Assembly (NCBI GenBank): GCA_964655245.1
Contig: CAZZLQ010000003.1
Coordinates: 1,887 to 65,886 of the forward strand
Length of the DNA stretch: 64,000 nucleotides
Source: an uncultured Bacteriovoracaceae bacterium
GTDB taxonomy: Bacteria; Bdellovibrionota; UBA2394
Reading direction: 5' to 3'
Shown one piece after another: positions 19,550 through 58,406 of the stretch; within the stretch, counting starts at the first letter, position 1; each line of letters begins with the position of its first letter. Below the pieces are notes generated by a model. It was not told the origin of the DNA. It worked only from the letters and a program-made list of their open reading frames with translations, and ran no database searches. The position numbers and the translations under genes were made by a program.

Positions 19550-19604
19550 GGGATGTGCCAGAGCGATTCGGCTCTAAAGCCTTAAGAACCGCATCGAGAG
19601 ACCG

Positions 19605-22997: not shown

Positions 22998-23259
22998 GGG
23001 TTCTCCTTTTTGAAACAGTAGCCGAGTAAGCGCACATGTGCCGAGGAGGTTGCAAGTGGTATGCCATTCAAAGTTTGTTTTGTGATGGACAGCTTAAGTA
23101 AAGGAACTTTCAATCACTTACACTCGAGCACTCGAAAAGAAGGAAAACATCGCTCTCTTCGAAACTGCGGCAAGTTGGCCTCAGGAGGCACGCCAGAGTC
23201 TCAGAGTCTGCGTTACGTTCTTGTGGCATGCTCGGCGCTGAAGATTCCCCAAGGAATGC

Positions 23260-28151: not shown

Positions 28152-28167
28152 ACAGACATGTGTCTGT
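28152..28167. promoter_or_regulatory. perfect 16-bp palindrome ACAGACATGTGTCTGT upstream of pilin-like cassette 1 (candidate operator)
   Basis: Read directly from the sequence; located 45 bp after the suhB-like stop and ~150 bp before cassette 1; no T-run follows, so it is not a typical terminator. Confidence 0.3.
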
Positions 28168-28191: not shown

Positions 28192-28220
28192 TTGACAGTC
28201 AGTTTAAGAGTTTATAAACT
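28192..28220 (+). promoter_or_regulatory. possible sigma-70-type promoter (TTGACA-N17-TAAACT) for cassette 1
   Basis: TTGACA at 28192-28197, 17-nt spacer, TAAACT at 28215-28220. Confidence 0.25.
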
Positions 28221-28288: not shown

Positions 28289-28304
28289 TGGAGATCAACT
28301 TGCA
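28289..28304 (+). promoter_or_regulatory. sigma-54-type -24/-12 element (TGGagaTCAACTTGCA) before modular pilin 1
   Basis: GG at 28290-28291 and GC at 28302-28303 separated by exactly 10 nt, perfect TTGCA -12 box; lies just upstream of the ATG at 28318. Confidence 0.35.
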
Positions 28305-28317
28305 AATCCACTCTGGC

Positions 28318-31059
28318 ATGAGGCGTCTGTGGTTGAATATCAGCATTTCTCGGTTCAGACTTTCCCAAAGCGGATTCAGTCTCGTTGAACTGCTCATGAG
28401 TCTTTCAGCACTCTTTGTCATCATCGGACTGAGTGTTCTCGGACTCAATCATCTTCGCTCAGGGCAATCGTTCATCATCAAACAAAATCGATTTCTTTCA
28501 GAGCTAGCCAAAGTCAAAGAAATCATTCGAGACGACATCCGAGTCGCTCTCTTAAACAATGGCTATACTTCAACAGAGGGCTTCGACGACCCAACAGCAG
28601 ATCAGTTTTACTTTGGCCTTGGAACGCAGACTCAAACAACGTCCCAACCTCAACTTCAAATCTTCAAGCCCCTCCATCAATCGCTGACAGTGCCTGTTTC
28701 TATTGCGGGCAATCAAGCAACCCTGACCACGATCCCCCGACTACGAGATTCGAGCGACCCACAGGCGACTCAACTTGCACAGTATTGGATTTCGGCTCTG
28801 CAAGAAGCAAAGTTCTTTACGATCACCAATGCGAGAAAAACAACTCTCATTGAAAAAGGCGCCGTTTCGGAAGCAGAGGAAGGTCCGTCGCTTGAAGCCA
28901 TTGGTGACACTCCTTTGAGCGAGGGAAACTCTGACTTTGTCAACTCAAGCAATCTCATTCGAACAGCTGAGAAGATCGAGTACTCATTTTCAGATCTCGA
29001 TGGAAGAATCACTCGAAAGAACCAGGCTCGAATCGATCAATCTGAGAACGTTGTTCTTCTTGAACGAGTTCGATCATTCAAAGTGGGCTACACCTTTCGA
29101 GACATGGACAGCGCCGGCATGATCATCCCTCGGCGGCCAAGTGAACCTTTGACTGCCGAGAATCTCCCCAACTCCTTTCAAGACGCCTGGAGTACACCCG
29201 ATGAAACCGGCCGAACCTGCCTCGTTGATGGACAGTTCGATCCTAGTAAGTGCGTCCAATCAAAACACATTGATCGAGTCTTTGTCAGAATCGAAGTTGA
29301 AACAGATTTCCCGCTGAGTTCCATTCCAACTCAAGCGAGCGACTATCAAGACATGAACATTCGCTGGGATCTCTCAACTGCCGATGGCAGAGCGATAGCC
29401 ATCGTGGACTTTCAAACTCAACCTGAAAACTTCAATCACCTGAGCGCTGGTCTCTTATCCTCAGGAACGAGTGTGAGCTGTTCGCCGACCCTTGAGAACC
29501 GATGCACACCCTCTTGCTCCAGCGCGTTTACTAATCCCAATCGCAATTCCAACGATTGGATTGGCTACGGCCGACACATTGGCCACCCCCATGGAGCCTC
29601 GAGCTACTGCCAATGCTGGACAAATCCCTCCAACCCAGCAGATGTTTCGATCGGAGATTGGAGTCGAGTGCCCACAATCAACTCCTGGATCAACGCCTCG
29701 CTCAGCGATCGAGATCGACTCACCGCCTGTGGCAAAGAGTACGGCTGTCACCATCCTGAGTCTTACAAACTCTTCGAAAGGAACCCCGCTTACCGACTGG
29801 CTTGCGGATGCTTGAGATCTTCAGACTCAATTCAAACGGATAACTACTACGTCAATCGCACAAGCGAGAATGCTCCCAAGTTTGAAAGCACAACGAGTCC
29901 AGAGCTTTTGGGCCATACACTCAACTCAACGCTGAGCTTGACCGATCCATCACTCTCAACGCTGAATCCGCTGAACCGATCTCTTCGCTGCGTAAACTAT
30001 CAGGCTTGCGATGCAGCCATGAATGCCTACTTTGGCGCCGGAACCTCAAACGGTCTTTTCATCAACCGCTGCCAATGCCTTAGCAATGACATCTCTGTGA
30101 AATGTGATACTCAAGCCATCAACGCCAACCCCAGCTCGATGACGGAGGAATGCAAAATGGCTCAAGGCGAGCCGATTAGTCCCTCGCACATCAACTACGC
30201 CAAAGTATGTAATCGAGATTTCCGAAATGGCACCGGCCCGATGACCTGCGCAAACACATGGAGCTCGACAGCTGGCCCCACCGCACCGAGTACAGTCCAG
30301 CCACCGTTTACAGGTGTGAGCATCACGGCGTGGAATCAAATCCCTATCAACAGTGACGTCACTGCTTTCAATCAAGCCACTCAAGAAGGTGGTGTGTATC
30401 AATTCCTATCGACGGGCTCGATCGATTTTAGTTCCAAGCTCGGAATCTCTCGAAGCGTTGCCGACGCTTGTGAGTGCCTCGAGAAGAAGATTCAAGGAGT
30501 CTTTGTTTCCGGCACAAATCAAACATCAACCTATGATTCTCTTACAGAGAATGAGCTGAGATCTTTTGCCTACCAAAACCTCAGCATCCTAGACTTTCGC
30601 CAGCCGCTTTTGAATCCACCCGCTGGAGCGCCCAGCTCTGCGCAACAAGACCGAAGCACTTTTGCATCTTATACGGACTCTCAACCATCCTCGTACAAAG
30701 CTATCTCAGCCTGCTCAGTCTTGGGAGATCCCAATGCTCCGTGCTTCAGCGTTGGAGCAGTCACTCCGACCGCGGGCTCGAAATCCTGTGGCCAATACTT
30801 TTGCAGCAACGTCACCGGCTCGGGACCGGGCTGCTGCACGATACCCAAGCCAGCAGCTCACAGCGCGATTGTTGATTCACTTGAAGCATGGAGTGGATTT
30901 TGCCACTCGAGCTGTCAGATTTTTAGCTCGACGCATCCGGCATTCAATCACGACGAAGTGGATGCCATTCGACGATGGATGACGGGAACTGCCGCAGGAG
31001 AGGAACTGCCAATCACCTGCGGTGGCAATGTTTCCGGCGATTCGCAACAGGCGTTTTAG
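28318..31059 (+). CDS. giant modular type IV pilin-like protein 1 (prepilin-type N-terminus, Cys-rich secreted C-terminal modules)
   Basis: ORF track frame 28288..31059; probable start is the ATG at 28318, giving leader 'MRRLWLNISISRFRLSQSG|FSLVELLMSLSALFVIIGLSVLGL' (G-1, E+5, hydrophobic helix = class III prepilin signal); paralogous to the 32880 and 37554 genes (shared blocks IFKPLHQSLTVPV, FRVGYTF, WIGYGR.GHP.GAS.YC.CWT, YxLACxCL, RCQCLS). Confidence 0.6.
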   Translation: MRRLWLNISISRFRLSQSGFSLVELLMSLSALFVIIGLSVLGLNHLRSGQSFIIKQNRFLSELAKVKEIIRDDIRVALLNNGYTSTEGFDDPTADQFYFGLGTQTQTTSQPQLQIFKPLHQSLTVPVSIAGNQATLTTIPRLRDSSDPQATQLAQYWISALQEAKFFTITNARKTTLIEKGAVSEAEEGPSLEAIGDTPLSEGNSDFVNSSNLIRTAEKIEYSFSDLDGRITRKNQARIDQSENVVLLERVRSFKVGYTFRDMDSAGMIIPRRPSEPLTAENLPNSFQDAWSTPDETGRTCLVDGQFDPSKCVQSKHIDRVFVRIEVETDFPLSSIPTQASDYQDMNIRWDLSTADGRAIAIVDFQTQPENFNHLSAGLLSSGTSVSCSPTLENRCTPSCSSAFTNPNRNSNDWIGYGRHIGHPHGASSYCQCWTNPSNPADVSIGDWSRVPTINSWINASLSDRDRLTACGKEYGCHHPESYKLFERNPAYRLACGCLRSSDSIQTDNYYVNRTSENAPKFESTTSPELLGHTLNSTLSLTDPSLSTLNPLNRSLRCVNYQACDAAMNAYFGAGTSNGLFINRCQCLSNDISVKCDTQAINANPSSMTEECKMAQGEPISPSHINYAKVCNRDFRNGTGPMTCANTWSSTAGPTAPSTVQPPFTGVSITAWNQIPINSDVTAFNQATQEGGVYQFLSTGSIDFSSKLGISRSVADACECLEKKIQGVFVSGTNQTSTYDSLTENELRSFAYQNLSILDFRQPLLNPPAGAPSSAQQDRSTFASYTDSQPSSYKAISACSVLGDPNAPCFSVGAVTPTAGSKSCGQYFCSNVTGSGPGCCTIPKPAAHSAIVDSLEAWSGFCHSSCQIFSSTHPAFNHDEVDAIRRWMTGTAAGEELPITCGGNVSGDSQQAF

Positions 31060-31073
31060 AAAGGAAGTGGGTG

Positions 31074-32702
31074 ATGCTTTTGAGATTTCAGCGGAGAATT
31101 CAAAATCGAGGACTTGCGATAATCACAGCGCTTGGCTTTCTTGCGTTGAGCTTGGGAATGGTTTTGTCACTTGCCTTCATGACCACTCGATTCAAAATGG
31201 AATCACGCTACTATGCGAGTCAGATTCACACTCAGATCGAAATCAAAGATCTCGCCAACCGAGTCCGAAAGGCTCTGCTTGCCGACGTGCAAGAGGCGAT
31301 AGCCACTTCTCGCGAACTTGATCTTGATCAGCTAAGAATTCAAATCGAAACTCAGATACAACAAGATGACCCCCATCAAACAAGTCCCTTCAAACTTTTG
31401 AGTTTACGCTGCATCGGCCAGGGAAGCTCTCCCAATGGTCTGTGCGATTCAAGTTCCGTTCTCCCTAAAATCTTTGACTTCAGCGTCCAAACAACCGATC
31501 GAGCAACGTCAGCGAACTCCCTGGTGAGCGCTGAGGTCCAAGTTCAAAATGCAGGACTAAGTTCATATGCCTTCCTCATCAAAAACGAAATGCGCCCCTC
31601 AGTAAGCCTCGGATCTGCTGTGTTTGCAGGGCTTTTTGGTATCAACTTCAATCGTCCGGCAGAGGAAGGCGAATTCGAAAGAAGAAGAATCAGATTTGAA
31701 ACACAGAATGGGGACATTACCTTTCAGAATGCTTTTGTGACAAATCTCAGCAGCCCGCAAGAGCAATTCGTCATTCCCAACGCCTCGCGAGTCCGCTTCG
31801 AGCAAGGAATCATCTCAAATCCCGAGGGAGTAAACTTCCAAAGCATTGATAACCTGTTTCCTCAGCTCAAGTCAGCGGCAGAAGATCTCAAGAATACAGC
31901 AGCCATCGGTGGCGAGCAAACATCACCTGAGTGCTCAAGAGTTGTCTTTCATGCAAACAGCTCGGCATTTGATTATTTTGAGTACATCGATCGAGATTGT
32001 TCCATTCCAAATTCAGCAGCGCAGCCCAATGGACCTATTCTCGGCAAAGCGATTGCCTCCAATGAAGTGATTTATGCTCGCGGCAACAAAGTGATTTTGG
32101 AAACTCAAAATCCCGACGGAAGGACAGGAATTGATAATATTGGAATTGTCGCGGATGGAAATGTGCATTTGCATTCATCGATTAGGCGCTCAGCCGCACT
32201 TGATCCTCTCAGCGGATTTCCATCTGTGATATCTCCCAAAGACCTGATTGTCAGTGCTGAAATGAGATCGCTCCTTCCGGGCAATCCAAGACTTCGTGAT
32301 ATCAGCGCCATTCCAGCAAATCATGACGAGCCCACGATTCAAGTCGATCTGAGTTACATCTCGGTCTCCAATGGAATCAGTAGCGGCTCACTTCAGGTGG
32401 ATCCTGCTCTACTCTCTGCAAGCCATCTGAGCGAAGCAACCGATTTGGGGAGAGCGAAGTTTTCTGGGCTCTACATCAGCGATCAAACACCGACGACACG
32501 AATGCTCTTTCCTGGCAGCGCATCTGTGGAAGGATTCTCTGAAACCGAATGGTCATACCCCTCAGCACTTTCAGCCGTTTCAACCGATTGGTTTAGAACT
32601 CAATTGGCAGGGGGCGCTCTTCAAGCACACGTCACTCGATACGAGATTCAAACCACTCAAATTCAAGAAGCTTTAGGCAGATTTTCAAACTCAGGCCACT
32701 AA
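31074..32702 (+). CDS. PilX-N-like transmembrane protein 1 (large PilX/minor-pilin-associated family), coupled to modular pilin 1
   Basis: Start ATG 31074 preceded by SD AAGGAAG (31061-31067), 14 nt after the pilin stop; N-terminus 'RRIQNRGLAIITALGFLALSLGMVLSLAF' resembles the PilX N-terminal domain; paralogous to the 35725 and 40424 genes (CIGQGS, NYAFLIKNE, IAIVADG, QVDLSYIS, GLYISDQTPTTR, WTYPxALSA..TDWFRTQL.GGAL). Confidence 0.55.
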   Translation: MLLRFQRRIQNRGLAIITALGFLALSLGMVLSLAFMTTRFKMESRYYASQIHTQIEIKDLANRVRKALLADVQEAIATSRELDLDQLRIQIETQIQQDDPHQTSPFKLLSLRCIGQGSSPNGLCDSSSVLPKIFDFSVQTTDRATSANSLVSAEVQVQNAGLSSYAFLIKNEMRPSVSLGSAVFAGLFGINFNRPAEEGEFERRRIRFETQNGDITFQNAFVTNLSSPQEQFVIPNASRVRFEQGIISNPEGVNFQSIDNLFPQLKSAAEDLKNTAAIGGEQTSPECSRVVFHANSSAFDYFEYIDRDCSIPNSAAQPNGPILGKAIASNEVIYARGNKVILETQNPDGRTGIDNIGIVADGNVHLHSSIRRSAALDPLSGFPSVISPKDLIVSAEMRSLLPGNPRLRDISAIPANHDEPTIQVDLSYISVSNGISSGSLQVDPALLSASHLSEATDLGRAKFSGLYISDQTPTTRMLFPGSASVEGFSETEWSYPSALSAVSTDWFRTQLAGGALQAHVTRYEIQTTQIQEALGRFSNSGH

Positions 32703-32814
32703 GGTCGCCTGAGCAATACCTACCGTCTCTGCAAGCTCATTCAAAGTCGGGCAAAACGGCCCGACCCTTATTCTAAGGGAATGGCTTTCTTGCCGGTTTT
32801 AAGCCGAAACAGCC

Positions 32815-32832
32815 TAGGCACCGGTTTTGCAA
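32815..32832 (+). promoter_or_regulatory. sigma-54 promoter (TAGGCACCGGTTTTGCAA) before modular pilin 2
   Basis: GGCAC-N5-TTGCA with GG (32817-32818) and GC (32829-32830) 10 nt apart; near-consensus -24/-12 element ~48 nt upstream of the ATG at 32880. Confidence 0.55.
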
Positions 32833-32879
32833 TCTCTAAACCTTGGTGTTGCAATAGGCGTGGCGACAGGAGTCGCCGA

Positions 32880-35699
32880 ATGCTGAGCCGTTTCATCCGC
32901 ACAAGAAAAATTCGAGCATTCACTCTCACCGAGTTCATGGTGTCTTTTGGCATTCTGGCCATTCTCGTTCTCGTTCTCGTGTTTGGAGTTGGCCGACTCA
33001 GAAGCACTCAAAGGAACGAACGACTTCGAGTTGATTTCCTTAACAGTCTAACGAATCTCAGAGCTGAATTCAAAAAGGACATTGAGGTTGCGCTTCTCAA
33101 CAATAGCCCTACGGCTGATGTGAATGTTTCCACGACGAATCAAAGTCGATTCTATGGAATTGGAACAAACATTGATACCACCGAGCAGTTTAGCTTTCAG
33201 ATCTTTAAGCCTCTTCATCAATCACTGACTCTGCCAGTAAAAGCTAACTCGCAAACCAATACTCTCACCATCGTTCCGTCCTCATCCGCCAGCGCCGCTA
33301 ACGAACGCACCTATCTGCAGCGAGCTCTGACCTCAGGAAAGTATTTTGTCATTTCGAATCAAACAGCTCAGGCGATTTTTGAGAGGCCCGCATCGTCATC
33401 CTCCAACAGTTCCTCCGCTCTCAGACTAGGCGCAATTCCCGCTGTGTCTTCATTTGGGACTCAGTTCACCGCGCAGAGCAATATGATTCGAACGGCCGAA
33501 AAAGTGACATTCGATTGGAATCAATCAAGCAAACTTCTGACTCGAACGTCGGATTACAGAACTGATTCCGCTCCCACGCAAGAACTGCTCTTCTCTAATG
33601 TGCTCGACTTTCGGGTGGGCTATACCTTTCGAACAAGGCAGGATACAGGAGTACAGGACAATGCCATCATTCCATCAAGGCCTGTGGGAATCCTCAGTGC
33701 ACTTAATCTACCCAATACTCTCGATGAGGCTTGGGCTCTGTCCAACTGCGTCGTCTCTGGACAACCCGCTGTTGTCAACGGACAGATCGTGCCGAACTGC
33801 GTAAAGCCCAAGAATATTGATCGCATTTATGTTCACCTTAAGATTCAAACTGATTTGCCAGTATCTCAGTTCGCCAGTCTGGATGCCGGAATCGAGGGCC
33901 TTCGAGTTCGCTTTGATTCCGCAACAAATGCAGCTCTTGTTGATTTCGAGCTCAGCTCACGAGCGTTCTCCCTCATGCAAGTGGCGCTCGCGAGCGGACA
34001 AAACATTACCTGTCAGCCAAACTCGGCAAGTCATTGTAAGCCAGAATGCTCCGAGATTTTTACGTCGCGCAATTCCAACGACGCCAATTGGATTGGCTAT
34101 GGTCGATATCGAGGTCATCCCCAAGGAGCTTCAGACTATTGCCTGTGTTGGACCGATCATGCGACGAATCAGATTGAAACAACAATGGGCAACTGGAGTC
34201 TTTTGCCCAACTGGACCGCCGGCGGAGACAACACACCTGAGAATAATCAAGTGGAGGCCTGCGGAAGACACTACGGTTGTGATGCAACCTTTCTGAGGCC
34301 TGATAACAATTGGCAAAGTGCGACCCCTGGACGAATCGTTCATCCGGGCTACAAACTGGCGTGCGATTGTTTGCAAGGTCCAAGCACAAACACCAACTTC
34401 TTTGTCAATCGCACAACTGATTTCAAACCCCGTTTCGACTCATCCACCGGACCACAACAAGGCGGCTTTACACTCAATAGCACGATCACTCAGTACAAAA
34501 ACAATTCAACATCGAATCCCTATCTGGAGCCTCAAGATCGCCATCTGAGTTGCGAGAAGCCGAGTCAATGTATCACGTCAATGAATCGCTACTATGGAAT
34601 TCCAAGTACAAGCACGGCCGCTCAGGATACCTTGAATGCTCGCTGCGGCTGTCTCACTCAGAACATTCCTTGGTCCTGTGACACTCGAAATCCCTCTCAA
34701 GCGCAAAGTGATGCCTCTTGCCGATCCGCCACCGGCAGTATCATTTCCTATCAAGAGCTGAACTTTGCAAGACTCTGCAACAGAGACTACCGACACAATT
34801 CGAATCAAAACCCCCTGTCATGTCCCAACACTTGGGCGCCGCGGGACCAAACGGGCACGGTCAATCTCCCTCACTTCAACTTAAGTCTCGATGTCTTTGC
34901 CACTAACAATCCTGATCCCGCTCTACCAGCCGATCGATACAATATTGAAAATGCTTCAGGCAATATCGCCTTCTCTCGCCGCTTTGGCATCACCAGAACC
35001 GTGGCCGAAACTTGCGAATGCTTAGCAAACAATATCGCTGGCGAATTTCATACAACGGGCAGTGGCAGCTCGCTGAGCTATGGTTATAGCCCGAATCTCG
35101 ACACGAGCAATAATCCCAATACAAACACTCTCTATCCGCCAACTCTGGTCGAAGGTATCGCCAACCTAGATTTTCGAGCTCCAAACAGGGCCCCCACAAC
35201 TGCAGTGTCAGGCCTAAGCTCTCCGGCATTTCCCACGAGCCATCCAATGATGTCAGTCTCCTATCCTACTTTCGGCTCCAATGTTTCTCAAACATCTCCC
35301 AACTACTCTGTGGTGACCACTGATGGCGCAGGTGCGAGGACATTTAGTACGTGGGCTCCGAGCCAAAGCTGCGGTGCCAATCACTGTACCATCAACACAA
35401 GCGCCGGACTGGGCTGCTGCCTTCAACAGCAAGCTTCAAACGTCGCATCAATCACTGCGGTCAGCAATTTGCTACAGCCTTGGAATGGATTCTGTCGGAC
35501 AGCAATCCTGCCAACGTGCACCGCCATCGGCGCCGTAGGGAGCACCACCATAATTGCCCAGAATGCAGTCTCAGCAGAAATGAATAGCATCCGTCGGTAC
35601 ATCACCCAGCGAACAAATCCCACCGGTGCTGCTAACTCAAATGCCAATCTCCCCGCTGATTGCGGTGGACCAGCAGGATCCGGAGTGGCTGGACAATAG
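32880..35699 (+). CDS. giant modular type IV pilin-like protein 2
   Basis: ORF track frame 32781..35699; probable start ATG 32880 with SD AGGAG (32868-32872); leader 'MLSRFIRTRKIRA|FTLTEFMVSFGILAILVLVLVFG' (A at -1, E+5); paralog of pilins 1 and 3. Confidence 0.6.
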   Translation: MLSRFIRTRKIRAFTLTEFMVSFGILAILVLVLVFGVGRLRSTQRNERLRVDFLNSLTNLRAEFKKDIEVALLNNSPTADVNVSTTNQSRFYGIGTNIDTTEQFSFQIFKPLHQSLTLPVKANSQTNTLTIVPSSSASAANERTYLQRALTSGKYFVISNQTAQAIFERPASSSSNSSSALRLGAIPAVSSFGTQFTAQSNMIRTAEKVTFDWNQSSKLLTRTSDYRTDSAPTQELLFSNVLDFRVGYTFRTRQDTGVQDNAIIPSRPVGILSALNLPNTLDEAWALSNCVVSGQPAVVNGQIVPNCVKPKNIDRIYVHLKIQTDLPVSQFASLDAGIEGLRVRFDSATNAALVDFELSSRAFSLMQVALASGQNITCQPNSASHCKPECSEIFTSRNSNDANWIGYGRYRGHPQGASDYCLCWTDHATNQIETTMGNWSLLPNWTAGGDNTPENNQVEACGRHYGCDATFLRPDNNWQSATPGRIVHPGYKLACDCLQGPSTNTNFFVNRTTDFKPRFDSSTGPQQGGFTLNSTITQYKNNSTSNPYLEPQDRHLSCEKPSQCITSMNRYYGIPSTSTAAQDTLNARCGCLTQNIPWSCDTRNPSQAQSDASCRSATGSIISYQELNFARLCNRDYRHNSNQNPLSCPNTWAPRDQTGTVNLPHFNLSLDVFATNNPDPALPADRYNIENASGNIAFSRRFGITRTVAETCECLANNIAGEFHTTGSGSSLSYGYSPNLDTSNNPNTNTLYPPTLVEGIANLDFRAPNRAPTTAVSGLSSPAFPTSHPMMSVSYPTFGSNVSQTSPNYSVVTTDGAGARTFSTWAPSQSCGANHCTINTSAGLGCCLQQQASNVASITAVSNLLQPWNGFCRTAILPTCTAIGAVGSTTIIAQNAVSAEMNSIRRYITQRTNPTGAANSNANLPADCGGPAGSGVAGQ

Positions 35700-35724
35700 A
35701 GACAGGTGTGAAGAAGGAGTTCTT

Positions 35725-37416
35725 ATGATGGCAATCACTCAAACAAAAATCAAAAAACAAAATCGCGGAATGGCTTTGATGCTGATTCTCGGATCTCTTT
35801 TGTTGGCGACGGCCGCTTTTGTGGGATTCTATCGAGCCTCTCAAAGCTTTCTTCGAAAAACGACGAGCTATGCTTCTCAAGTGCAGACGGAGTTTGATAG
35901 CGCTCACCTTGCCGAACGAACACGACGAGCGATCCTGAGAGAGGCTCAAATGAGAATGGCTGGCAATGGCGCCACCAATCTCATGAATACTCTCACTCCT
36001 GAGGTCCTTCAAACTTCTGTTTTTTTGCAACCCGGTGAAAGAATCTTGCAGGTTCGATGCCTTGGACAAGGAGCAGAAGATGCCTTCCAGCATGAAGTTT
36101 GCACAGCTTCAAGCGTCCTGCCCAAAGTCCTAGAGTTCTCTGTTCAATCGACGGATCCTAGCACTCAACAAATGAGAGTCGTTCGACAGGAAATCCATCT
36201 TAACAATCCCTCGCTGAACAATTACGCCTTTCTCATTCGAGCGGAGGATCGAGAGCAACAGTTTACGCTCTTTCCAGCCACGTATGCAGGCCTCTATGGA
36301 ATCATTTTCACCAACCCCAATCTCGTCCTTCCACCCCCCTCGGGAAGCTCCATTTCACCTCGCAGAATCAAACTGGCTCCGGATCAGTACACGGGAAATC
36401 TCATTTTTCAGAAGGCTTTCATCACTAATCTTCCGAACCCCCGGGACCAAATTGAGATCCCCAGCTCCGCTGCCAACTATCTCCAAATGCCAGCAGGTGT
36501 AGTCTCGGCAGCCACTGGCGGTCTAGACTTTGGTCGAGTCAACTCAGTCTATGACGATCTCAAAAGCTCCGCCGTCAATGCCTCAGCGCTCGCTACTCTC
36601 CCACCAGGAACAGTGATCAACTGCTCAAGAGTAACCCTCATGAGAAGTGCGTCGCGCGTTCGATATCAAAACTTCAGTGATACTGGGTGCACAACGGCCA
36701 TTGACTCACCCACAGAGTATCCCATGCAAGCCAACCAATCGATTTATGCTCGGGGCCAAAACGTTCTTCTCAATTCCGAAGTCACCTCAGGCGGAATAAC
36801 ATCCGACAATGGCATGACCAAAGTAGATAATATCGCCATTGTCGCCGATGGAACCGTCCAACTCCTCAGCTCCATTCGAAGGGATTCAACCATGGATCCC
36901 CTCAGCGGATATCCTGCGGTGATGACACCCGGACAGCTGATGATTTCTCAAAACATGACGACCTTGCTGAGCGGATCTCAAACTCTGGGGCAGATAACTC
37001 AAAATCAAGGTCTTTCATCAAGCAGTACTAATCCAACGATTCAAGTGGACCTCAGTTTCATCGCTGCGGGAAACAGTCTCGGCCAAGCCAACGTCGTCGT
37101 CGATCCTCAACTCTTTGGATCAAGTGGAGTGCAGTCAGCTGGAAATGCTGTCAGCCTGGGCAAAGCCGTCTTCAATGGAATGTACATCAGCGACAAAGTG
37201 CCAACGACTCGAGTTGTTTATAGTAGCGTGATAACGGACGGATTTAACAAGATCGATTGGACTCATCCAGCGGCGCTTTCGTCTGTCCAAACCGATTGGT
37301 TCTCAGCACAATTGGGAGGAGGTGCACTTCAGGCTTCAGTTGTACGATCCGAGCAGACGACTCTCGATTTGAGTCAGGCTCTGAGCGCCTTCAATGGACC
37401 CTCAATGGGGAACTGA
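35725..37416 (+). CDS. PilX-N-like transmembrane protein 2, coupled to modular pilin 2
   Basis: Start ATG 35725 with SD AAGGAG (35714-35719), 25 nt after the pilin stop; N-term 'KQNRGMALMLILGSLLLATAAFVGFY'; paralog of the 31074 and 40424 genes. Confidence 0.55.
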   Translation: MMAITQTKIKKQNRGMALMLILGSLLLATAAFVGFYRASQSFLRKTTSYASQVQTEFDSAHLAERTRRAILREAQMRMAGNGATNLMNTLTPEVLQTSVFLQPGERILQVRCLGQGAEDAFQHEVCTASSVLPKVLEFSVQSTDPSTQQMRVVRQEIHLNNPSLNNYAFLIRAEDREQQFTLFPATYAGLYGIIFTNPNLVLPPPSGSSISPRRIKLAPDQYTGNLIFQKAFITNLPNPRDQIEIPSSAANYLQMPAGVVSAATGGLDFGRVNSVYDDLKSSAVNASALATLPPGTVINCSRVTLMRSASRVRYQNFSDTGCTTAIDSPTEYPMQANQSIYARGQNVLLNSEVTSGGITSDNGMTKVDNIAIVADGTVQLLSSIRRDSTMDPLSGYPAVMTPGQLMISQNMTTLLSGSQTLGQITQNQGLSSSSTNPTIQVDLSFIAAGNSLGQANVVVDPQLFGSSGVQSAGNAVSLGKAVFNGMYISDKVPTTRVVYSSVITDGFNKIDWTHPAALSSVQTDWFSAQLGGGALQASVVRSEQTTLDLSQALSAFNGPSMGN

Positions 37417-37520
37417 AATGCCTATGAAAGCTTTGCACTCTTCGGACAATTTTGGTCCCTCCTCGCAAGCCATCTCAGCCAAAACCCTGACGGTAAGCGC
37501 CTAAACCTCGATAGAGCACG

Positions 37521-37536
37521 GGGCATTAGTTTTGCA
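37521..37536 (+). promoter_or_regulatory. sigma-54-type -24/-12 element (GGGCATTAGTTTTGCA) before modular pilin 3
   Basis: GG-N10-GC spacing with perfect TTGCA; 17 nt upstream of the GTG start at 37554. Confidence 0.45.
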
Positions 37537-37553
37537 GTCGCTAAACGGTTGGC

Positions 37554-40424
37554 GTGGTTTGGCAACGATCGATATGGAATCCCCAGAAGGGATTTAGTCT
37601 TACGGAATTGCTCATCTCAATAGCACTTCTGAGTCTTCTCGTTGCGGTGGCCTACCTCGGCGTTTCAAGCTTACGAGAACGGCGAAACATTGAATCTGCG
37701 AGACTGAACTTTTTCCGAACTGCCGCGGAGATCAAAAACAAAATCAAAGATGATATCGAAGTGGCTATTCTCAACAACGGTTTTACTGCCTCAAGAAACC
37801 TATCCGCTCAGCAATTACAAAATGCTAATAGCCAAAAGTATTTTGGCCTCGGAACAAGCTTCCTCACGAATGACTATGCCAACGTCGAGCTCCAGATCTT
37901 TAAGCCATTCAATCAATCTCTGTCCGTTCCCGTTCGAGTTGATGCCAAAAAGGCTCGGATCCTGGGATGGCCGAACGGCTTGGACGCCACCTCCAGACAG
38001 TACTGGGAAAAAGCAGCAACGTCGGCCAACTATTTTGTGATTAGTAATGAACGAAAAAACATTATCTTCCCGCGAGGGTCACAGAGCTCAGCTTCCGCGG
38101 CGCAGGCCGAAATATTTCCGATGACTTCCTCAGCCCTCGACGGAACGCCGTTTAGCAGCCCATCAGCAGTTGCGGATTTCAGTCAGTCGGCCAACATTAT
38201 TCGAACCGTTGAGAAAGTTCGCTATGTTTACGATTCCGAGACTCAGCGCCTGACTCGCTCGGGTCACTATCAGCAAAATCAAAATAGTCAGAGCCTTATC
38301 GCTGACAGAGTTCTTGGCTTTCGCGTTGGCTACACTTTCAAACGCATGGACGCCAATGATCTTGCCATTCTCCCCCCTGATCCCGAAACTGATCCCACTG
38401 ATCCCGAAACTGCCCCTTCCGCCCGAAATCTACCCAACAGCTTTACTGAGGCCTGGGCAGTTTCGAATTGTGCAGGAACAGGAAATCCCATCGATGCATC
38501 AGGTCAGATCATTCCAACATGTGTGAAGCCCCAAAACATCAATGATGTTTACATCAGCCTCACTATGGAAACCGATCTTCCGATGCGTGCAGCTCAAGCG
38601 TTGGATCAATACGAAGATATGCAGATCGAAATGGGTGGCAATATCGAGACCAATCAAGTGATTGCGACGATTAGCTTTCGAATCAAGCCTCGAAGTTTTT
38701 CAAACTCGCTGGGCAGCGATCTCGCTTCAGGCCAAGCTGTCACCTGTGCCGCGACGGAAGCGAACCGATGTAAGCCATCTTGCACAGCGGCCTTCAAGAA
38801 TCTCAACCGAAATGCTGATGATTGGGTTGGCTACGGACGATACGTTGGGCATCCGGATGGAGCATCGAGCTACTGCAAGTGCTGGACAGACCCTGATACC
38901 AATGAAGTTCATCTGGGAGATTGGACAAGAATTCCTCAGTGGAGTAGCGCCCCCACAGCCGAGCAAAAATCCCGAACGGAAGCTTGCGGCCTTGAGTATG
39001 GCTGCCATTGGGGAACCGTTTGGAAGCATGAAGGTTATCAGCTCGCGTGCAATTGTCTTCGCACACAAGACGCCGTGAGCGAGCATTTCGTTCTTCGTGA
39101 CGACCAAAACAGACCTTCGTTTGCCAACGCGACTGCATCTGAAACCGGCGGATTTGCTCTGCGCAATCTCAATTGGAGTGATCCGCATCTCTCCAGCATC
39201 AAAGACGATGGAGCTCTGAGCAAAGCCATTCGTTGCTACAACTATCCTGCCTGTTGGGCTGCCATGACCACGTACTTCAATGAAATTGGTCAAGGAGGCG
39301 AATTACCAAGTGGCACTCCCGAGAACAACTTGTTTACCGAACGATGCCAATGTCTTTCACGAGATATCCCCTACGCTTGTGATGTCAAAACAATCTCTGA
39401 GGGAGAAAAACCTTCAGATGCTTGTCTCAACAGTGAGGGCGAAGCAATCGCCCGAGGCTATATTGACTTCTCCAAGATCTGCAACCAAAACGCCCGAAAC
39501 GGCACAGGACCTGTAGCTTGCGTGAACACTTGGATGAGCAAAGCCCCCTCCGGAGAGGTCATGATGCCACCGTTCAATGCCAATCTTAGTGAAAATCTTA
39601 CAGATTTTCGAAACCCTCTAGGCATCCAGATCAACGATGAGGGATTCTACTTTGGCTACGGCTCAGGTGACTTTGCTTCTAAACTGGGGCTGGAGGAGGA
39701 TCTGATCAAAGCCTGCGAGTGCATGGAAAAGCGCGTTTCAGGACAACAACAAGGCACATCCTTCCAAGAAGTTAACGATCCAAGCTCCTTCATCTATCCT
39801 TCGTGGCCTGGCTATCTCGACTTCCGACTGCCAAGCACAACTACGCAGAGCTACTCTCCACCTGGTTACCAGCGACTCTACGCAACAGATGGCTCCTACA
39901 AAGACAGCACGATTCCCACCTATAAAGTTGTGACCCGAACTCAGTTTACTTATCACACCGTTCGACCGGCTGATTGCACAAGCTGGGGATCCTGGGTGAT
40001 CGGCGAATGCAAACTCGGTGGAGCGTTTCGACTTTGCGATAGTAGTTTTTGGCCAGAAGCTCTCTCAGACGCCAATCGAGATACGATGATTGGGCAGTGC
40101 CGAGTTTCTGCAGCGAACAATTCCGCATTCACTGGTGTCCCTACTCTGATTGAACGAACTGAAGATGCCTCAAACACCTGCGGCGACAATCTCTGCAGAA
40201 TGGGATTTGGCGGAACTCACTGCTGTACGAACCAATATCCAGATGCCAATGGCTTGATCTATGACTCGATGGAGAGCTGGAGTGGCTACTGCAGAGCTGA
40301 GTGCGGGGGATCCAATTACCAAATGGATCGGGTCAACAATCTCAGAGATCTGATCACAGAGGTTCCGGGACTGCCCTTTGGATGCGGTGGAAATCAGCAA
40401 TCTAACGGCGAGGGAGCTCTGTAA
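37554..40424 (+). CDS. giant modular type IV pilin-like protein 3
   Basis: GTG start; leader 'MVWQRSIWNPQKG|FSLTELLISIALLSLLVAVAYLG'; paralog of pilins 1 and 2; contains a DPETDPT tandem peptide repeat and a Cys-rich C-terminal half. Confidence 0.6.
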   Translation: MVWQRSIWNPQKGFSLTELLISIALLSLLVAVAYLGVSSLRERRNIESARLNFFRTAAEIKNKIKDDIEVAILNNGFTASRNLSAQQLQNANSQKYFGLGTSFLTNDYANVELQIFKPFNQSLSVPVRVDAKKARILGWPNGLDATSRQYWEKAATSANYFVISNERKNIIFPRGSQSSASAAQAEIFPMTSSALDGTPFSSPSAVADFSQSANIIRTVEKVRYVYDSETQRLTRSGHYQQNQNSQSLIADRVLGFRVGYTFKRMDANDLAILPPDPETDPTDPETAPSARNLPNSFTEAWAVSNCAGTGNPIDASGQIIPTCVKPQNINDVYISLTMETDLPMRAAQALDQYEDMQIEMGGNIETNQVIATISFRIKPRSFSNSLGSDLASGQAVTCAATEANRCKPSCTAAFKNLNRNADDWVGYGRYVGHPDGASSYCKCWTDPDTNEVHLGDWTRIPQWSSAPTAEQKSRTEACGLEYGCHWGTVWKHEGYQLACNCLRTQDAVSEHFVLRDDQNRPSFANATASETGGFALRNLNWSDPHLSSIKDDGALSKAIRCYNYPACWAAMTTYFNEIGQGGELPSGTPENNLFTERCQCLSRDIPYACDVKTISEGEKPSDACLNSEGEAIARGYIDFSKICNQNARNGTGPVACVNTWMSKAPSGEVMMPPFNANLSENLTDFRNPLGIQINDEGFYFGYGSGDFASKLGLEEDLIKACECMEKRVSGQQQGTSFQEVNDPSSFIYPSWPGYLDFRLPSTTTQSYSPPGYQRLYATDGSYKDSTIPTYKVVTRTQFTYHTVRPADCTSWGSWVIGECKLGGAFRLCDSSFWPEALSDANRDTMIGQCRVSAANNSAFTGVPTLIERTEDASNTCGDNLCRMGFGGTHCCTNQYPDANGLIYDSMESWSGYCRAECGGSNYQMDRVNNLRDLITEVPGLPFGCGGNQQSNGEGAL

Positions 40425-42106
40425 TGAAACGAGGTCACTCTATGACTTTCTCTTCCCTTCAACGGAAGCAATCTAACGGAATGGCAATCGTCGTCGTCCT
40501 AGGAATACTTCTGATCGGGATAGGATTAATGATTGGTTTCATGAAGAGCTCTGCTCGATTCAATCAAAGCAATGTGCAACGCTCCGCTAAAATTCAATCA
40601 GATCTAAAGACAGACAGTCTTTCGGACCGCTTGCGAAGAGCGATACTCCAAGAGGTTCAAGCCCGAATGGCTGAAACGGGAATGACTCAAGCAACGGTTA
40701 GCCTGGGTGGACAGCAAATCCTCGACTCTCAATCCATCCAACGTCTTCCCATGGAAGTCAATCAACGGATCTTATCCATTCGATGCATTGGACAAGGCAG
40801 CACGCCCTCGGGTGTCTGCACAAGCCAAAACATTCTTCCAAAGATTTATGATTTTGCCGTGCAAACCATCGATCAAGATACCGGAACCATCACAATGGCA
40901 CATACAGAGTTCCAAATTCAAAATGCAAGCTTGAGCTCATACGCTTTCTTTATCAAAAATGAAATGGCCCCATCTGTGACTTTGGGATCCGCCATCTTTG
41001 ATGGGATTTTTGGAATCAACTTTGCTCCAACTCCTAATGGTCAAACTCCTCCCCCCCAGCAGCGCATACGATTTCGACCAGGAGCCGGCAATATCACCTT
41101 CAAAAATGTTTTAATGACCAATCTTCCCAATCCCCAAACTCAGTTTGATCTGCAACAAAACTCTCAAGTTCATTTCGAGCAAGGTGTGATCTCAAATCCT
41201 GAGGGGGTAAGCTTCTCCAATCTCGACAACCTTCATAACACCCTCGTCAATCAAGCTGTGAATGCTGGGTTCTCTGCACCCCCAGGAACTCCGACGCCTG
41301 AGTGCTCATCCATCGTCCTTCAGAGTGATGGAAAGCTCCAGTACAATGAATTTTCTGATGTCGCCTGCGAGGATTCTTCGCTCCAAATGTCTGATATCTC
41401 GATGGTGGCAAATCAAGCCTTCTATGCTCGGGGCAACAAAGTTCTCCTCTCAGCAAACGATCCTCAAGGAATCACGAGAGTCAAAAACATTGCCATTGTC
41501 GCTCAAGGAAATGTTGAACTGAGATCATCGATCGTTCGCGATGCGGAAAATCTCAGCGCGCTTGAGGGCTATCCCACAGTGATCACTCCCGGAAATCTTG
41601 TCATTCCAAAGGAAATGAAAACCCTCCTTAACAGCGGCACCTCTACTTTAGAGGACATCAATCCTGGCGTTGGAAGTGATGTTGAATATCCAACGATTCA
41701 ACTCGATCTGAGTTATATCTCCGTCAGACCTCAAGGATCTCAAGGTGTGATGGGAGGATCGGTTAGATTTGATCCAGAGCTCAGAAATGCAGGAACAAGT
41801 GATGACGCCATCAATCTTGGCAAAGCCCACTTCAATGGTCTCTACATCAGCGAACAAACCCCCACGTCCCGAGTTCTCTTTCAAAACTCCGATCGAGTCG
41901 ACGGCTTTAAAGAAGTCAAATGGACCTACCCTCCAGCTCTGTCAGCTATCGGAACTGATTGGTTTCGAACCCAGCTCAACGGTGGGGCCCTGAGAGCCAC
42001 AGTGACTCGATACGAAAAACAGTTTACCGACGTACAACAAGCTCTGACCGCTTTTCGAGGCGGCACCTCCGTCACGGAGATCAAGCAAGCAGAGACCTTT
42101 GAGTAG
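40424..42106 (+). CDS. PilX-N-like transmembrane protein 3, coupled to modular pilin 3
   Basis: ATG overlaps the pilin 3 TAA (TAATG); N-term 'QSNGMAIVVVLGILLIGIGLMIGFM'; paralog of the 31074 and 35725 genes. Confidence 0.55.
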   Translation: MKRGHSMTFSSLQRKQSNGMAIVVVLGILLIGIGLMIGFMKSSARFNQSNVQRSAKIQSDLKTDSLSDRLRRAILQEVQARMAETGMTQATVSLGGQQILDSQSIQRLPMEVNQRILSIRCIGQGSTPSGVCTSQNILPKIYDFAVQTIDQDTGTITMAHTEFQIQNASLSSYAFFIKNEMAPSVTLGSAIFDGIFGINFAPTPNGQTPPPQQRIRFRPGAGNITFKNVLMTNLPNPQTQFDLQQNSQVHFEQGVISNPEGVSFSNLDNLHNTLVNQAVNAGFSAPPGTPTPECSSIVLQSDGKLQYNEFSDVACEDSSLQMSDISMVANQAFYARGNKVLLSANDPQGITRVKNIAIVAQGNVELRSSIVRDAENLSALEGYPTVITPGNLVIPKEMKTLLNSGTSTLEDINPGVGSDVEYPTIQLDLSYISVRPQGSQGVMGGSVRFDPELRNAGTSDDAINLGKAHFNGLYISEQTPTSRVLFQNSDRVDGFKEVKWTYPPALSAIGTDWFRTQLNGGALRATVTRYEKQFTDVQQALTAFRGGTSVTEIKQAETFE

Positions 42107-42200
42107 CGGAAACTAGACATCAGCGCCCCAGTTGCTGGCGATTGGGGCATCAAGTCCCCGCGAACCCTCATATAACATCAGTAGTTTCAATATCTTAGGC

Positions 42201-42217
42201 TTGGCAACAATCTTGCT
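42201..42217 (+). promoter_or_regulatory. sigma-54 promoter (TTGGCAACAATCTTGCT) before the MshEN-like gene
   Basis: TGGCAa-N5-TTGCt, GG (42203-42204) and GC (42215-42216) 10 nt apart; ~55 nt upstream of the ATG at 42273, which has SD AAGGGAG. Confidence 0.5.
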
Positions 42218-42272: not shown

Positions 42273-42563
42273 ATGTCTGATTTATCACCTCGGCCATTGG
42301 GAGAAGTGCTGATCCATCGAGGGCAGCTGAGAAAGCTTCAACTGGATTTTATCTTGGACCTTCAAAAGGCTTACAAATCCATTGCTCGACACTACAAACT
42401 CGGTGATCTGCTCATCAAACACCGAGTGATCTCAGAAGTCGCTCTCAAGGAAGCTCTGCTCGTTCAATCTGAACTGCCCCGTGAGGGAATCACCGCCATT
42501 CTGGCCCGCTACCAAGAAGAGGTCAGCTTTCAAACCAAATTGATCGACTCGCCTCAAAGCTAA
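42273..42563 (+). CDS. small standalone MshEN/T2SSE_N-like domain protein (candidate c-di-GMP-binding)
   Basis: 96 aa; two ~24-aa repeats 'PLGEVLIHRGQLRKLQLDFILDLQ' and 'KLGDLLIKHRVISEVALKEALLVQ' fit the [RK]LGxxL[LIV]xxGx[IL]x(4)Lx(2)ALxxQ tandem motif of the GspE/MshE N-terminal domain. Confidence 0.45.
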   Translation: MSDLSPRPLGEVLIHRGQLRKLQLDFILDLQKAYKSIARHYKLGDLLIKHRVISEVALKEALLVQSELPREGITAILARYQEEVSFQTKLIDSPQS

Positions 42564-45958: not shown

Positions 45959-47373
45959 AAGACGACGACAAAACATCGACAGGCAAAACCAAAGTGATCC
46001 GATGGGAGGAGCAACCCACAAAGCTAACCCTTTCAAAGTGCAAGCTCACGGTCACTTCTGGCGATAACAAAGGAAAAGAATTTGTCTTAAGTCAGCCAGT
46101 CATTCGTGTGGGAACAAAGAAAGAAAATGAAATCGGACTCAAAGACGAAACCATGAGTCGAATTCACTTTGAAATTCTGCAAACAAAAGAAGGCTATCTA
46201 CTTCGGGATGCTGAATCTCTGAATGGAACCTTCATCAACGGGGTCCGCGTCAAAGAAGCCTTCCTCTCTTCTGGGACAACCATTCGAGCAGGAAAAACTG
46301 AAATGAAGTTTGCCCCCCTTGATGAAATATTCGAGATCGTTCCAAGTAAAAAAACTAAGTTCTCCAACCTGATTGGTGGAAGCACCGCCATGAGAAGAAT
46401 CTACTCTATCATTGAGAAGGTGGGGCCCACCGATGTCACCGCGTTGATCGAGGGGGAATCAGGAACGGGAAAAGAGCTCATTGCCAGCGCTATTCACGAA
46501 AAATCGAAGCGAAACAAAAAGCCATTTGTCGTCTTTGATTGCTCCGCCGTCGCTGAGAATCTGATCGAGAGTGAGCTATTTGGACACGAGAAAGGATCGT
46601 TCACGGGTGCCACCGGCATGCGCCACGGGGCCTTCGAATTGGCCGATGGCGGAACCATCTTTCTTGATGAGATTGGAGAGCTTACTCTGGAGCTTCAACC
46701 CAAGCTCCTTCGAGTTCTTGAGTCTCGAACGATCAAGCGAGTCGGAGGGGATCGCCCGATCAATGTGGATGTGAGAGTGGTTGCTGCGACCAATCGAAAC
46801 CTTGAAGCAGAGGTCAAAAAGGGAGCATTCAGAGAAGATCTGTTCTATCGACTCAATGTCGTTCCCATTCATCTTCCACCGCTTCGACGACGCAAAGATG
46901 ATATCGAAATGCTCGTCGATCATTTCATTGAGGAATACACCAAACAAAATCCAGACAAGAAAGTTCAAGGCGTCACGGTTCCAGCCATGGAGATCCTCAA
47001 ATCCTACGACTGGCCAGGCAATGTTCGGGAACTTCGAAACACCATGTCCCGGATCCTGAGCTTCATGGAAGGTGAAAAGATCACTCCCGATGATGTTCCC
47101 GAGAGAATCAAAGTTCCTGTCGCCAAAGCAGAATTGGATATCCGAGAAGACCTCGGGTTCAAAGATGCCAAGGAGCAGTGGATTTCAACTTTCGAGAAGC
47201 AATATCTTCAAGAGGTTCTTAAGCGTAACAACAATAACATCTCAGCCACTGCCAAAGAGGCTGGAATTGATCGAAAGTCTGTTCAACGCTTAATTAAAAA
47301 ATACGGCCTCAATACTGGCGGTCGATTCAGTGATGAAGATCTTGAGGATGAAGCATCCGCCGAAGAGACGTAA
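45955..47373 (+). CDS. sigma-54-dependent transcriptional activator with N-terminal FHA domain
   Basis: 472 aa; FHA '[14 protein letters not shown]...SRIHFEIL...GTFINGVRV'; AAA+ 'GESGTGKE', intact 'GSFTGA' (GAFTGA) loop, '[10 protein letters not shown]', arginine finger region, C-terminal HTH; ATGA overlap with the slt stop. Confidence 0.85.
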
Positions 47374-58314: not shown

Positions 58315-58406
58315 AATTTCCCTTCAGAGATGACCCCTTTGCAGCCATAAAGTTGCAAGCGGCATGCCAGACCTGAGCGGCTCAAAACCACGTATAATAG
58401 GAGCTT

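Follow-up and report, generated by a model that had tools for sequence, protein, structure and literature searches.

Sigma-54-type promoters probably precede two giant pilin-like gene cassettes and an MshEN-like gene in a Bacteriovoracaceae-type chromosome

How are the genes for very large pilin-like proteins switched on in a predatory bacterium? The question is raised by a stretch of DNA of 64,000 nucleotides (nt), here called the window, whose closest named relative is a metagenome-assembled genome (MAG) of the Bacteriovoracaceae. Three tandem paralogous cassettes, each made of a gene for a pilin-like protein of ~920-960 amino acids (aa) and a gene for a partner of ~540-565 aa, are followed in it by a gene for a 96-aa protein, all on the + strand. 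An earlier note on this DNA had proposed that four -24/-12 promoters of the sigma-54 (RpoN) type, called here P1 to P4, stand before the three cassettes and the 96-aa gene. Judged by score, position and conservation, P2, P3 and P4 are likely to be genuine sigma-54 promoters of a Bacteriovoracaceae-type predator chromosome, while P1 did not hold up as such in the window.

The control of pilus genes by sigma-54 is already well known, and its mechanism is a textbook one. The sigma-54 holoenzyme stays closed until an enhancer-binding protein hydrolyses ATP, and pilA of Pseudomonas aeruginosa is controlled by sigma-54 and PilS-PilR. In Xanthomonas oryzae, pilin genes are driven by sigma-54 together with a PilR-type activator (RpoN2-PilRX) (PMC7170775), and in Myxococcus xanthus (pilA) by sigma-54 and PilR, with internal sigma-54 sites also known within pil open reading frames (ORFs) (PMC6211767). 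Moreover, the former deltaproteobacterial predator lineage is rich in sigma-54 regulation (PMC3526173).

All four proposed strings were found in place on the + strand with GG-N10-GC spacing (Table 1). In agreement with the claim that they lie directly 5' of the genes, each falls in a short non-coding gap, 13-55 nt before a start codon, the likeliest start codons being ATG 28318 (or TTG 28333), ATG 32880, GTG 37554 and ATG 42273. The description of P2 and P4 as near-consensus was also borne out, with one mismatch each. The transcription start expected from P2 is ~32842, and the 96-aa gene, which P4 would drive, has the Shine-Dalgarno sequence GGGAG.

When the consensus TGGCACN5TTGCW was searched in the window with up to two mismatches, 35 matches were obtained against 34 expected from shuffled sequence, an uninformative result which, together with a P1 score no different from background, is what could be expected if all four strings were chance matches to a short degenerate consensus. 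With up to one mismatch there were six matches against 2.2 expected, five of the six being intergenic and facing a gene, with P2 and P4 included. A position weight matrix (PWM) was then applied to the ~128,000 positions of both window strands; it was derived from 54 published sites (26 from E. coli, EcoCyc, and 28 from Desulfomicrobium, RegPrecise, S2 Table of PMC12316311). P4 ranked 3rd (16.1 bits), P2 7th (13.2 bits) and P3 8th (13.2 bits), outscoring 44%, 13% and 13% of the training sites, respectively, the 10th percentile of which lies at 12.5 bits. The chance of an equal score in a random 120-nt segment is 0.0025 for P4, 0.006 for P2, 0.007 for P3 and 0.14 for P1, under a null that is conservative in that the real sites are included in it, and the joint probability for P2-P4 in three 120-nt upstream segments is ~1e-7. 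Against the background of the window, P2, P3 and P4 beat chance and P1 does not.

The distribution of the scores along the window points in the same direction. Six of the eight top-scoring window sites are intergenic and face a gene, and the scores of the regions upstream of individual genes are bimodal: six genes reach at least 13 bits, namely the targets of P2, P3 and P4 and those of the sites at 58354(-), 23051(-) and 19545(-), and the best of the 42 others reaches 7.6 bits. Of the 29 sites that reach 12.5 bits in the window and 11 related loci taken together, 16 are located in promoter zones, which cover 6.4% of positions (binomial 2e-12; since orthologues are not independent, the significance is at most this high). 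With P2-P4 within the top 8 of all positions, with their joint probability and with this enrichment, chance is a scarcely credible account of the four strings, and for P2-P4 it is refuted by their conservation in orthologues and paralogues.

That conservation was seen in the related loci, 11 usable contigs reached via exact-protein look-ups and labelled here L001 and so on; a scan of genome contigs gave a single locus, which ended at the gene start, and one of metagenome contigs gave none. At nine loci (L001, L002, L003 (two), L004, L006, L012, L013 and L014), the giant pilin gene is preceded by a GG-N8-TTGC site, with 13-48 nt between site and start. The sites of cassette 2 type are AGGCATTGCTTTTGCA (L002), AGGCATCGCTTTTGCA (L004) and AGGCACCGGTTTTGCA (L003), and an extra cassette of L003, cassette X, has AGGCACTCATTTTGCA. 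The sites of cassette 3 type, AGGCATCGGTTTTGCA (L001) and AGGCATTGGTTTTGCA (L012), both stand 17 nt before the same GTG. More distant giant pilin genes are preceded by GGGCATTGGTTTTGCA (L013), TGGCACTCCCGTTGCA (L006) and TGGCACCCCCGTTGCA (L014), and in L011 a dockerin-like gene lies between the site TGGCCCCTGAGTTGCA and the pilin gene. Sites orthologous to P4 are TGGCCACAAACTTGCT in L007 (55 nt before the gene), TGGCCAGAAACTTGCT in L013 (35 nt) and AGGCCTAGAAATTGCA in L009 (53 nt), so that P4 is kept in four lineages, including the distant MAG L009, which has no cassettes and whose flanking DNA is unalignable.

In the alignments of P2, P3 and P4 with their counterparts, the -24 and -12 blocks are invariant, and the spacer and the flanking intergenic DNA change. 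For cassette 2 (window, L002, L003, L004 and the paralogue X), the invariant blocks are AGGCA and TTTTGCA. All 21 sites of the clade agree in positions 2-4 (GGC) and 12-15 (TTGC), and the commonest base at any spacer position does not exceed 46%. This is more than neutral retention, because protein identity falls to ~30%, a divergence at which neutral DNA would be randomised. An alignment of the four window upstream regions to one another with MAFFT was not meaningful.

The conserved strings might bind a factor other than sigma-54, either sigma-70 with a TTGCAA -35 box or a factor acting at a cassette recombination or junction element. Close relatives differ in cassette number (0, 2, 3, extra X), so junctions could be under selection, and at cassette 2 TTGCAA is followed by TGCAAT 16-17 nt further on in four lineages; yet TGCAAT, without the A that is critical at position 2 of a -10 box, is not found at cassette X, cassette 3 or P4. 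What all sites have in common is GG-N10-GC, with no -10 box, and the same motif architecture is found at non-cassette genes. Such a factor is therefore regarded as highly improbable. For cassette 2 in particular, reading the site as a sigma-70 promoter (TTGCAA-17-TGCAAT) was tried and rejected, since its -10 box is poor and not common to the other sites.

Several points weigh against a sigma-54 reading of the four sites. P1 scores 3.95 bits with the published-site PWM (rank 187), under every training site. In Xanthomonas, GGN10GC occurs in nearly all pilus promoters and only three bound sigma-54 in vitro (PMC7170775), a result that matters here because P1 is weak. If transcription starts 12 nt beyond the GC, a 5' untranslated region (UTR) of ~3 nt is left for P1 and one of ~7 nt for P3, and so short a UTR is awkward for the GTG start behind P3, which has no Shine-Dalgarno sequence. 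The sites compared between loci are the best PWM match of each region, a choice that by itself accounts for part of the constancy of GG and GC, and a fair measure for them is given by the per-region p-values, 0.0025-0.014. Furthermore, the candidate activator described below is linked to these promoters by proximity alone, and rpoN is not among the window ORFs scanned against Pfam (a few small ORFs fall outside that scan); the gene is present in B. bacteriovorus HD100 (bd0843; PMC3464611) and in Bacteriovorax marinus (PMC3526173).

In the case of P1, the proposal of a sigma-54 promoter is weakened by a degenerate -24 box, TGGAGA, and a noise-level score; the orthologue alone scores well. This orthologue, AGGCCATCGCCTTGCA in L002 and L004, has the GG and the TTGCA in the same register, 13 nt before a conserved ATGAGGCG. 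With a second PWM built from the 21 clade sites, cassette 1 type excluded, AGGCCATCGCCTTGCA reaches 15.2 bits (p = 0.004), and the window P1 reaches 6.9 bits (rank 52, p = 0.04). The simplest reading is that P1 represents an ancestral sigma-54 promoter whose -24 box would have decayed here from GGCCA to GGAGA. The sigma-70-like site located upstream of P1 (Table 1), for which no conservation was found in the L002/L004 alignment, may contribute to the expression of cassette 1. Given the drift of the -24 box to TGGAGA, the likely source of cassette 1 transcripts is either weak activity of P1 or this sigma-70-like site.

The positions of the features considered here are collected in Table 1.

Table 1. 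Coordinates of the promoter-like sites, genes and candidate regulatory elements in the window (loci other than the window are named).
Feature	Position	Strand	Remarks
P1 TGGAGA-TCAAC-TTGCA (TGGAGATCAACTTGCA)	28289-28304	+	13 nt to ATG 28318, cassette 1
P2 AGGCAC-CGGTT-TTGCA (AGGCACCGGTTTTGCA)	32816-32831	+	48 nt to ATG 32880, cassette 2
P3 GGGCAT-TAGTT-TTGCA (GGGCATTAGTTTTGCA)	37521-37536	+	17 nt to GTG 37554, cassette 3
P4 TGGCAA-CAATC-TTGCT (TGGCAACAATCTTGCT)	42202-42217	+	55 nt to ATG 42273, 96-aa gene
Close-to-start sites	28304/28318, 37536/37554, 19545/19531; L006 4900/4915; L009 7537/7554		
Strongest window site TGGCATGCCGCTTGCA	58354-58369	-	17.4 bits; 39 nt before TPR protein gene (55756-58314)
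Strong site TGGCATACCACTTGCA	23051-23066	-	17.3 bits; before HEAT-repeat gene (22056-22997)
Perfect-consensus site TGGCACATCCCTTGCT	19545-19560	-	13 nt before in-frame ATG (19531), dockerin-like gene
Sigma-70-like site TTGACA-17-TAAACT	28192-28220	+	10/12 matches; 70 nt upstream of P1
Palindrome ACAGACA-TG-TGTCTGT	28152-28167		~157 nt upstream of expected P1 start; candidate activator site
Inverted repeat GTCGGGC-N6-GCCCGAC	32746-32765		Centred ~87 nt upstream of expected P2 start
39-nt block	37417-37455		Directly after cassette 2 partner stop; 92-130 nt upstream of expected P3 start
Cassette 1 large pilin-like gene	28318-31059	+	ORF, translation; G/FSLVELL N-terminus
Cassette 1 partner gene, ~542 aa	31074-32702	+	Translation; N-terminal hydrophobic segment RGLAIITALGFLAL; paralogous to other partners
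Cassette 2 large pilin-like gene, 939 aa	32880-35699	+	
Cassette 2 partner gene	35722-37416	+	
Cassette 3 large pilin-like gene, 956 aa	37554-40424	+	N_methyl motif, 29.7 bits
Cassette 3 partner gene	40424-42106	+	
96-aa MshEN-like gene, possible receptor of cyclic di-GMP (c-di-GMP)	42273-42563	+	NF053729 and NfrB C-terminus match; P4 upstream
Candidate activator, sigma-54 enhancer-binding protein	45955-47373	+	FHA, AAA+ with GSFTGA, HTH_8

The short distances between promoter and start codon deserve separate attention. P1 and P3 had been described as lying only ~15 nt from the start, with a misplaced start as one explanation; the gaps, 13 and 17 nt, are real, and a misplaced start finds no support, as they are not annotation slips because they are kept in orthologues, the 13-nt gap of cassette 1 in L002 and L004 and the 17-nt gap of cassette 3 in L001 and L012. 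In cassette 3, no alternative start codon occurs before the prepilin cleavage motif; in cassette 1, an alternative TTG (28333), with GAGG 9 nt upstream, is conserved. The distance of 12 nt used for the transcription start fits the 85-nt EcoCyc entry for glnA if the start is position 61, a format that was assumed. Further short gaps are those of the dockerin-like gene of the window (13 nt), of L006 and L014 (14 nt) and of a PLD gene in L009 (16 nt), and the other sites have leaders of 35-55 nt with a clear Shine-Dalgarno sequence. This implies that the short-gap sites, read from their sequence, would yield leaderless-like transcripts with a 5' UTR of ~2-7 nt, and such near-absent 5' UTRs would be the least ordinary feature of the locus.

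The longer 5' UTR of cassette 2 contains a hairpin, GGCGAC-AGGA-GTCGCC (window 32857-32879), that encloses the Shine-Dalgarno sequence GGAG and is kept in L002, L003 and L004 with a loop of AGGA or GGGA; it may control translation.

If P2, P3 and P4 are sigma-54 promoters, sigma-54 RNA polymerase would bind the GG and TTGC blocks and be held in a closed complex, which an AAA+ enhancer-binding protein, bound upstream, would open using ATP. From the established behaviour of this promoter class, it would follow that cassette 2, cassette 3 and the MshEN-like 96-aa gene are off by default and turned on via the activator. The identity of the activator, its binding location, the transcription start and the separate regulation of the cassettes are the inferred parts of this model.

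The proposal of control by an enhancer-binding protein gains from a complete sigma-54 activator gene found nearby, 3.7 kb downstream. Its product matches the Pfam families Sigma54_activat (3e-71), FHA and HTH_8 and has Walker A and B motifs and a GSFTGA loop; among NCBIfam equivalogs, none reaches its cut-off. As the nearest complete activator, this protein would be the candidate for the role, with an FHA domain that points to regulation through Ser/Thr phosphorylation. In Myxococcus xanthus, enhancer-binding proteins with an FHA domain, reportedly treated by Jelsbak, Givskov and Kaiser in 2005, have the same domain order (FHA, sigma-54 AAA+, helix-turn-helix (HTH)); they differ in the loop, which is GSFTGA here and not GAFTGA, and the NCBIfam equivalogs stay below cut-off. 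The PilS-PilR systems share with this locus a GGN10GC promoter directly 5' of a prepilin-type gene, and there an NtrC-family AAA+ activator is required. Here, no PilR/PilS pair is adjacent, and the nearest complete activator carries FHA and not a receiver; in addition, the targets are pilin-like proteins of ~930 aa with partners of ~560 aa instead of a major pilin, and they are arranged as three paralogous cassettes in tandem, with a site for each.

A second AAA+ protein (10609-11904), of NtrC type with a receiver, is encoded 17 kb from the cassettes. Its Sigma54_activat match covers profile positions 3-63 only, it is without a GAFTGA-type loop, and no HTH was detected in it; from these features it is probably not a sigma-54 activator. 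Its gene adjoins that of a PDZ-containing histidine kinase (10609-14116, - strand).

Four elements would be candidates for activator binding: the palindrome (28152-28167), the inverted repeat (32746-32765), the 39-nt block (37417-37455) and a 9-mer, CTACGCAAG. The palindrome is part of a 22-nt block with 100% conservation in L002 and L004 and diverging flanks; it is unique in the window and is not repeated before the other cassettes. The inverted repeat does not vary among four upstream regions of cassette 2; it forms a stable hairpin with a poor T tail, which makes it a candidate either for an activator site or for a weak terminator of cassette 1. The 39-nt block is 100% identical in L001, the next 35 nt diverging, and by eye it resembles the block upstream of cassette 2. 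Exact copies of CTACGCAAG in L002, L003, L004 and L005 are confined to cassette upstream regions, forward before cassettes 2 and X and reverse before cassette 1, and the 9-mer is degenerate in the window.

In the more distant loci L006, L011 and L014, a different inverted repeat, GTGATTACA-N3-TGTAATCAC (right arm TGTAAKCAC), was observed 43-45 nt upstream of the GG, at L006 ~4815-4836, L014 ~9368-9390 and ~14020-14040 and L011 ~8395-8415, centred at ~-80. It is a good candidate for an enhancer in those loci and was absent when searched for in the window.

Whether each cassette is controlled independently, and the three perhaps differentially, as had been predicted, is another matter: the prediction extrapolates from the presence of separate sites. 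A conserved block, CTAYGCAAG...GGGCAAAACG, appears homologous upstream of cassettes 2, X and 3, which speaks against a private activator for each cassette, as a single activator could act on several of them. Neither a convincing terminator nor a stable structure (z = 0.15) was found in the gap between cassettes 2 and 3, so that read-through is possible. The hairpins between cassettes are without T tracts and could be weak terminators.

The lack of a canonical terminator between cassettes is also compatible with a single long operon of the three cassettes and the 96-aa gene, served by one promoter 5' of cassette 1, such as the sigma-70-like site at 28192-28220, where TTGACA-17-TAAACT is indeed present; the -24/-12 strings would then be relics of spacer duplication. 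The co-oriented genes, their short intergenic gaps (137-177 nt) and the location of P1 and P3 too near the start codon for a normal 5' UTR agree with this arrangement, which nevertheless leaves unexplained why GG and TTGC stay at a constant distance, with varying bases between them, when the cassette proteins are only 33-39% identical and neutral spacer DNA should be randomised. Moreover, the motif also precedes unrelated genes for TPR, HEAT and dockerin-like proteins and the MshEN-like gene of a relative without cassettes, the sigma-70-like site is not conserved in L002 and L004, and internal promoters can coexist with read-through. A single operon with relic strings is thus considered improbable.

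Under sigma-54 control of P2-P4, very large pilin-like proteins that are rare, and with them a c-di-GMP-receptor-like protein, would be made only on signal, since a sigma-54 promoter gives no transcript before an ATPase activator has acted. The pili of a predatory bacterium are needed for prey entry, and rpoN, the FHA activator and the conserved upstream blocks would offer a regulatory handle on the predator. The result mainly improves annotation; its unusual points are the variation in cassette copy number and the near-absent 5' UTRs.

As for the proteins themselves, the large proteins of the three cassettes are 33-36% identical (36% between cassettes 1 and 3) and the partners 38-40%. Prepilin-type N-termini are visible in all three large proteins (G/FSLVELL, A/FTLTEF and G/FSLTELL). 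The N_methyl profile PF07963 matches the cassette 3 protein above its cut-off of 21.2 bits and the cassette 2 protein at 18.4 bits, under it; for the cassette 1 protein there is no match at E < 0.01, the motif being visible in the translation. The family is very rare, with 13 distinct proteins in total from searches of 5.8 billion protein clusters. An AlphaFold model of the large protein (cassette 2), made from an input of 12 sequences, has a mean pLDDT (predicted local distance difference test) of 44.5 and is confident only for residues ~15-360, a long N-terminal helix with beta sheets; the Cys-rich C-terminal ~580 residues lie outside this part. With the model, Foldseek gave no significant match against the PDB, the single high-probability match being the pseudopilin EpsJ (probability 0.93, template modelling score (TM) 0.53 normalised to target, E = 0.08), and searches of PDB sequences with the large protein and with the partner gave no match. 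An adhesin function, as the earlier note suggested, is accordingly no more than putative.

These features invite comparison with the minor-pilin and pseudopilin tip modules (GspJ/GspK; PilW/PilX/PilY1). A prepilin N-terminus and, according to the model, a helix with beta sheets would be shared, and here too the large gene is paired with a gene for a second protein, which bears an N-terminal hydrophobic segment. The EpsJ fold match is not significant, and no relative of the Cys-rich C-terminal 580 residues was detectable in profile, PDB sequence and Foldseek searches.

A bolder proposal, which appears rather unlikely, is that, in a small clade of predatory Bacteriovoracaceae, the cassettes form a copy-number-variable array (0 to at least 3) of alternative pilus-tip modules, each with its own sigma-54 promoter and distinct enhancer sites and with several of the transcripts leaderless. 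If it were true, the cell could choose which tip module is displayed, for example for different prey.

The number of cassettes does vary among relatives, from three in the window to two on the P0003 contig (435 kb) and none in L009. In L003 (1-8166), cassette X lies between cassettes 1 and 2 and is 49% identical to cassette 2, and the sequence near the end of its cassette 1 partner gene appears by eye almost identical to that of the window.

P4 had been counted as part of the accessory block; it belongs instead to the MshEN-like gene, because the cassette-free L009 keeps this gene together with a GG-N10-GC/TTGCA site at the same distance. In L009 (9700-11700), the gene is one gene away from that of an inositol monophosphatase. 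The 96-aa protein scores 35.2 bits with NCBIfam NF053729, whose cut-off is 38, and the C-terminus of NfrB was also matched. The MshEN motif, of the type RLGxxhhxxGhhxxxxLxxxLxxQ, is 24 residues long and occurs in two copies (PMC5013675), and compared with it the 96-aa protein has two 24-residue motifs with one deviation each and a 10-residue spacer. The protein therefore shares the two-motif plan with MshEN (Vibrio cholerae MshE N-terminus; NfrB C-terminus), but its spacer has 10 residues where that of MshEN has 5, its first motif has Q in place of the hydrophobic residue just after the conserved Gly, and its second motif has R replacing a conserved Gly. Unlike MshE and NfrB, it stands alone, without an ATPase or a glycosyltransferase.

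The window is chromosomal, as purL/Q/C, mutS, ftsK, priA, hutU/H, katG, relA/spoT and gmk are present; an Rfam scan of it found no family. Cassette 1 is preceded by housekeeping genes (CBS-PLP enzyme, cystathionine gamma-lyase and inositol monophosphatase). On the 3' side of the 96-aa gene lie a PGI-like gene on the - strand, a gene for a TPR/SLT lytic transglycosylase and then, translationally coupled, that of the sigma-54 enhancer-binding protein. The string TGGAAAGCGCCTTGCA (window 45592-45607, +; 11-14 bits), located inside the SLT gene and 363 nt ahead of that of the activator, may be a sigma-54 site, internal or autoregulatory, or a chance match.

Another internal motif, TGGAATCAAYTTTGCT, of 13-16 bits, is conserved within the partner genes, where it encodes G-I-N-F-A (window 41011-41026 (+), L007 1822, L012 6977, L013 6699, L006 8297 and L014 12856). 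Its synonymous positions seem less variable than the flanks in a set of only six sequences, and it may be an internal promoter or merely a conserved peptide.

Away from the cassettes, the sites at 58354(-) and 23051(-) outscore all four proposed sites. The site at 19545-19560 (TGGCAC-N5-TTGCT) directly follows a strong katG terminator (CCCTGACTCC...GGAGTCAGGGTTTT), and the dockerin-like gene behind it is followed by a DUF4423 gene. The TPR gene that would be driven from 58354(-) is divergent from a gene for a TadA/VirB11-family secretion ATPase (58407-59540, +), near which a 660-aa FHA-domain protein is encoded (52744-54726, -); this protein, together with the FHA activator, hints at signalling by Ser/Thr phosphorylation around pilus or secretion genes.

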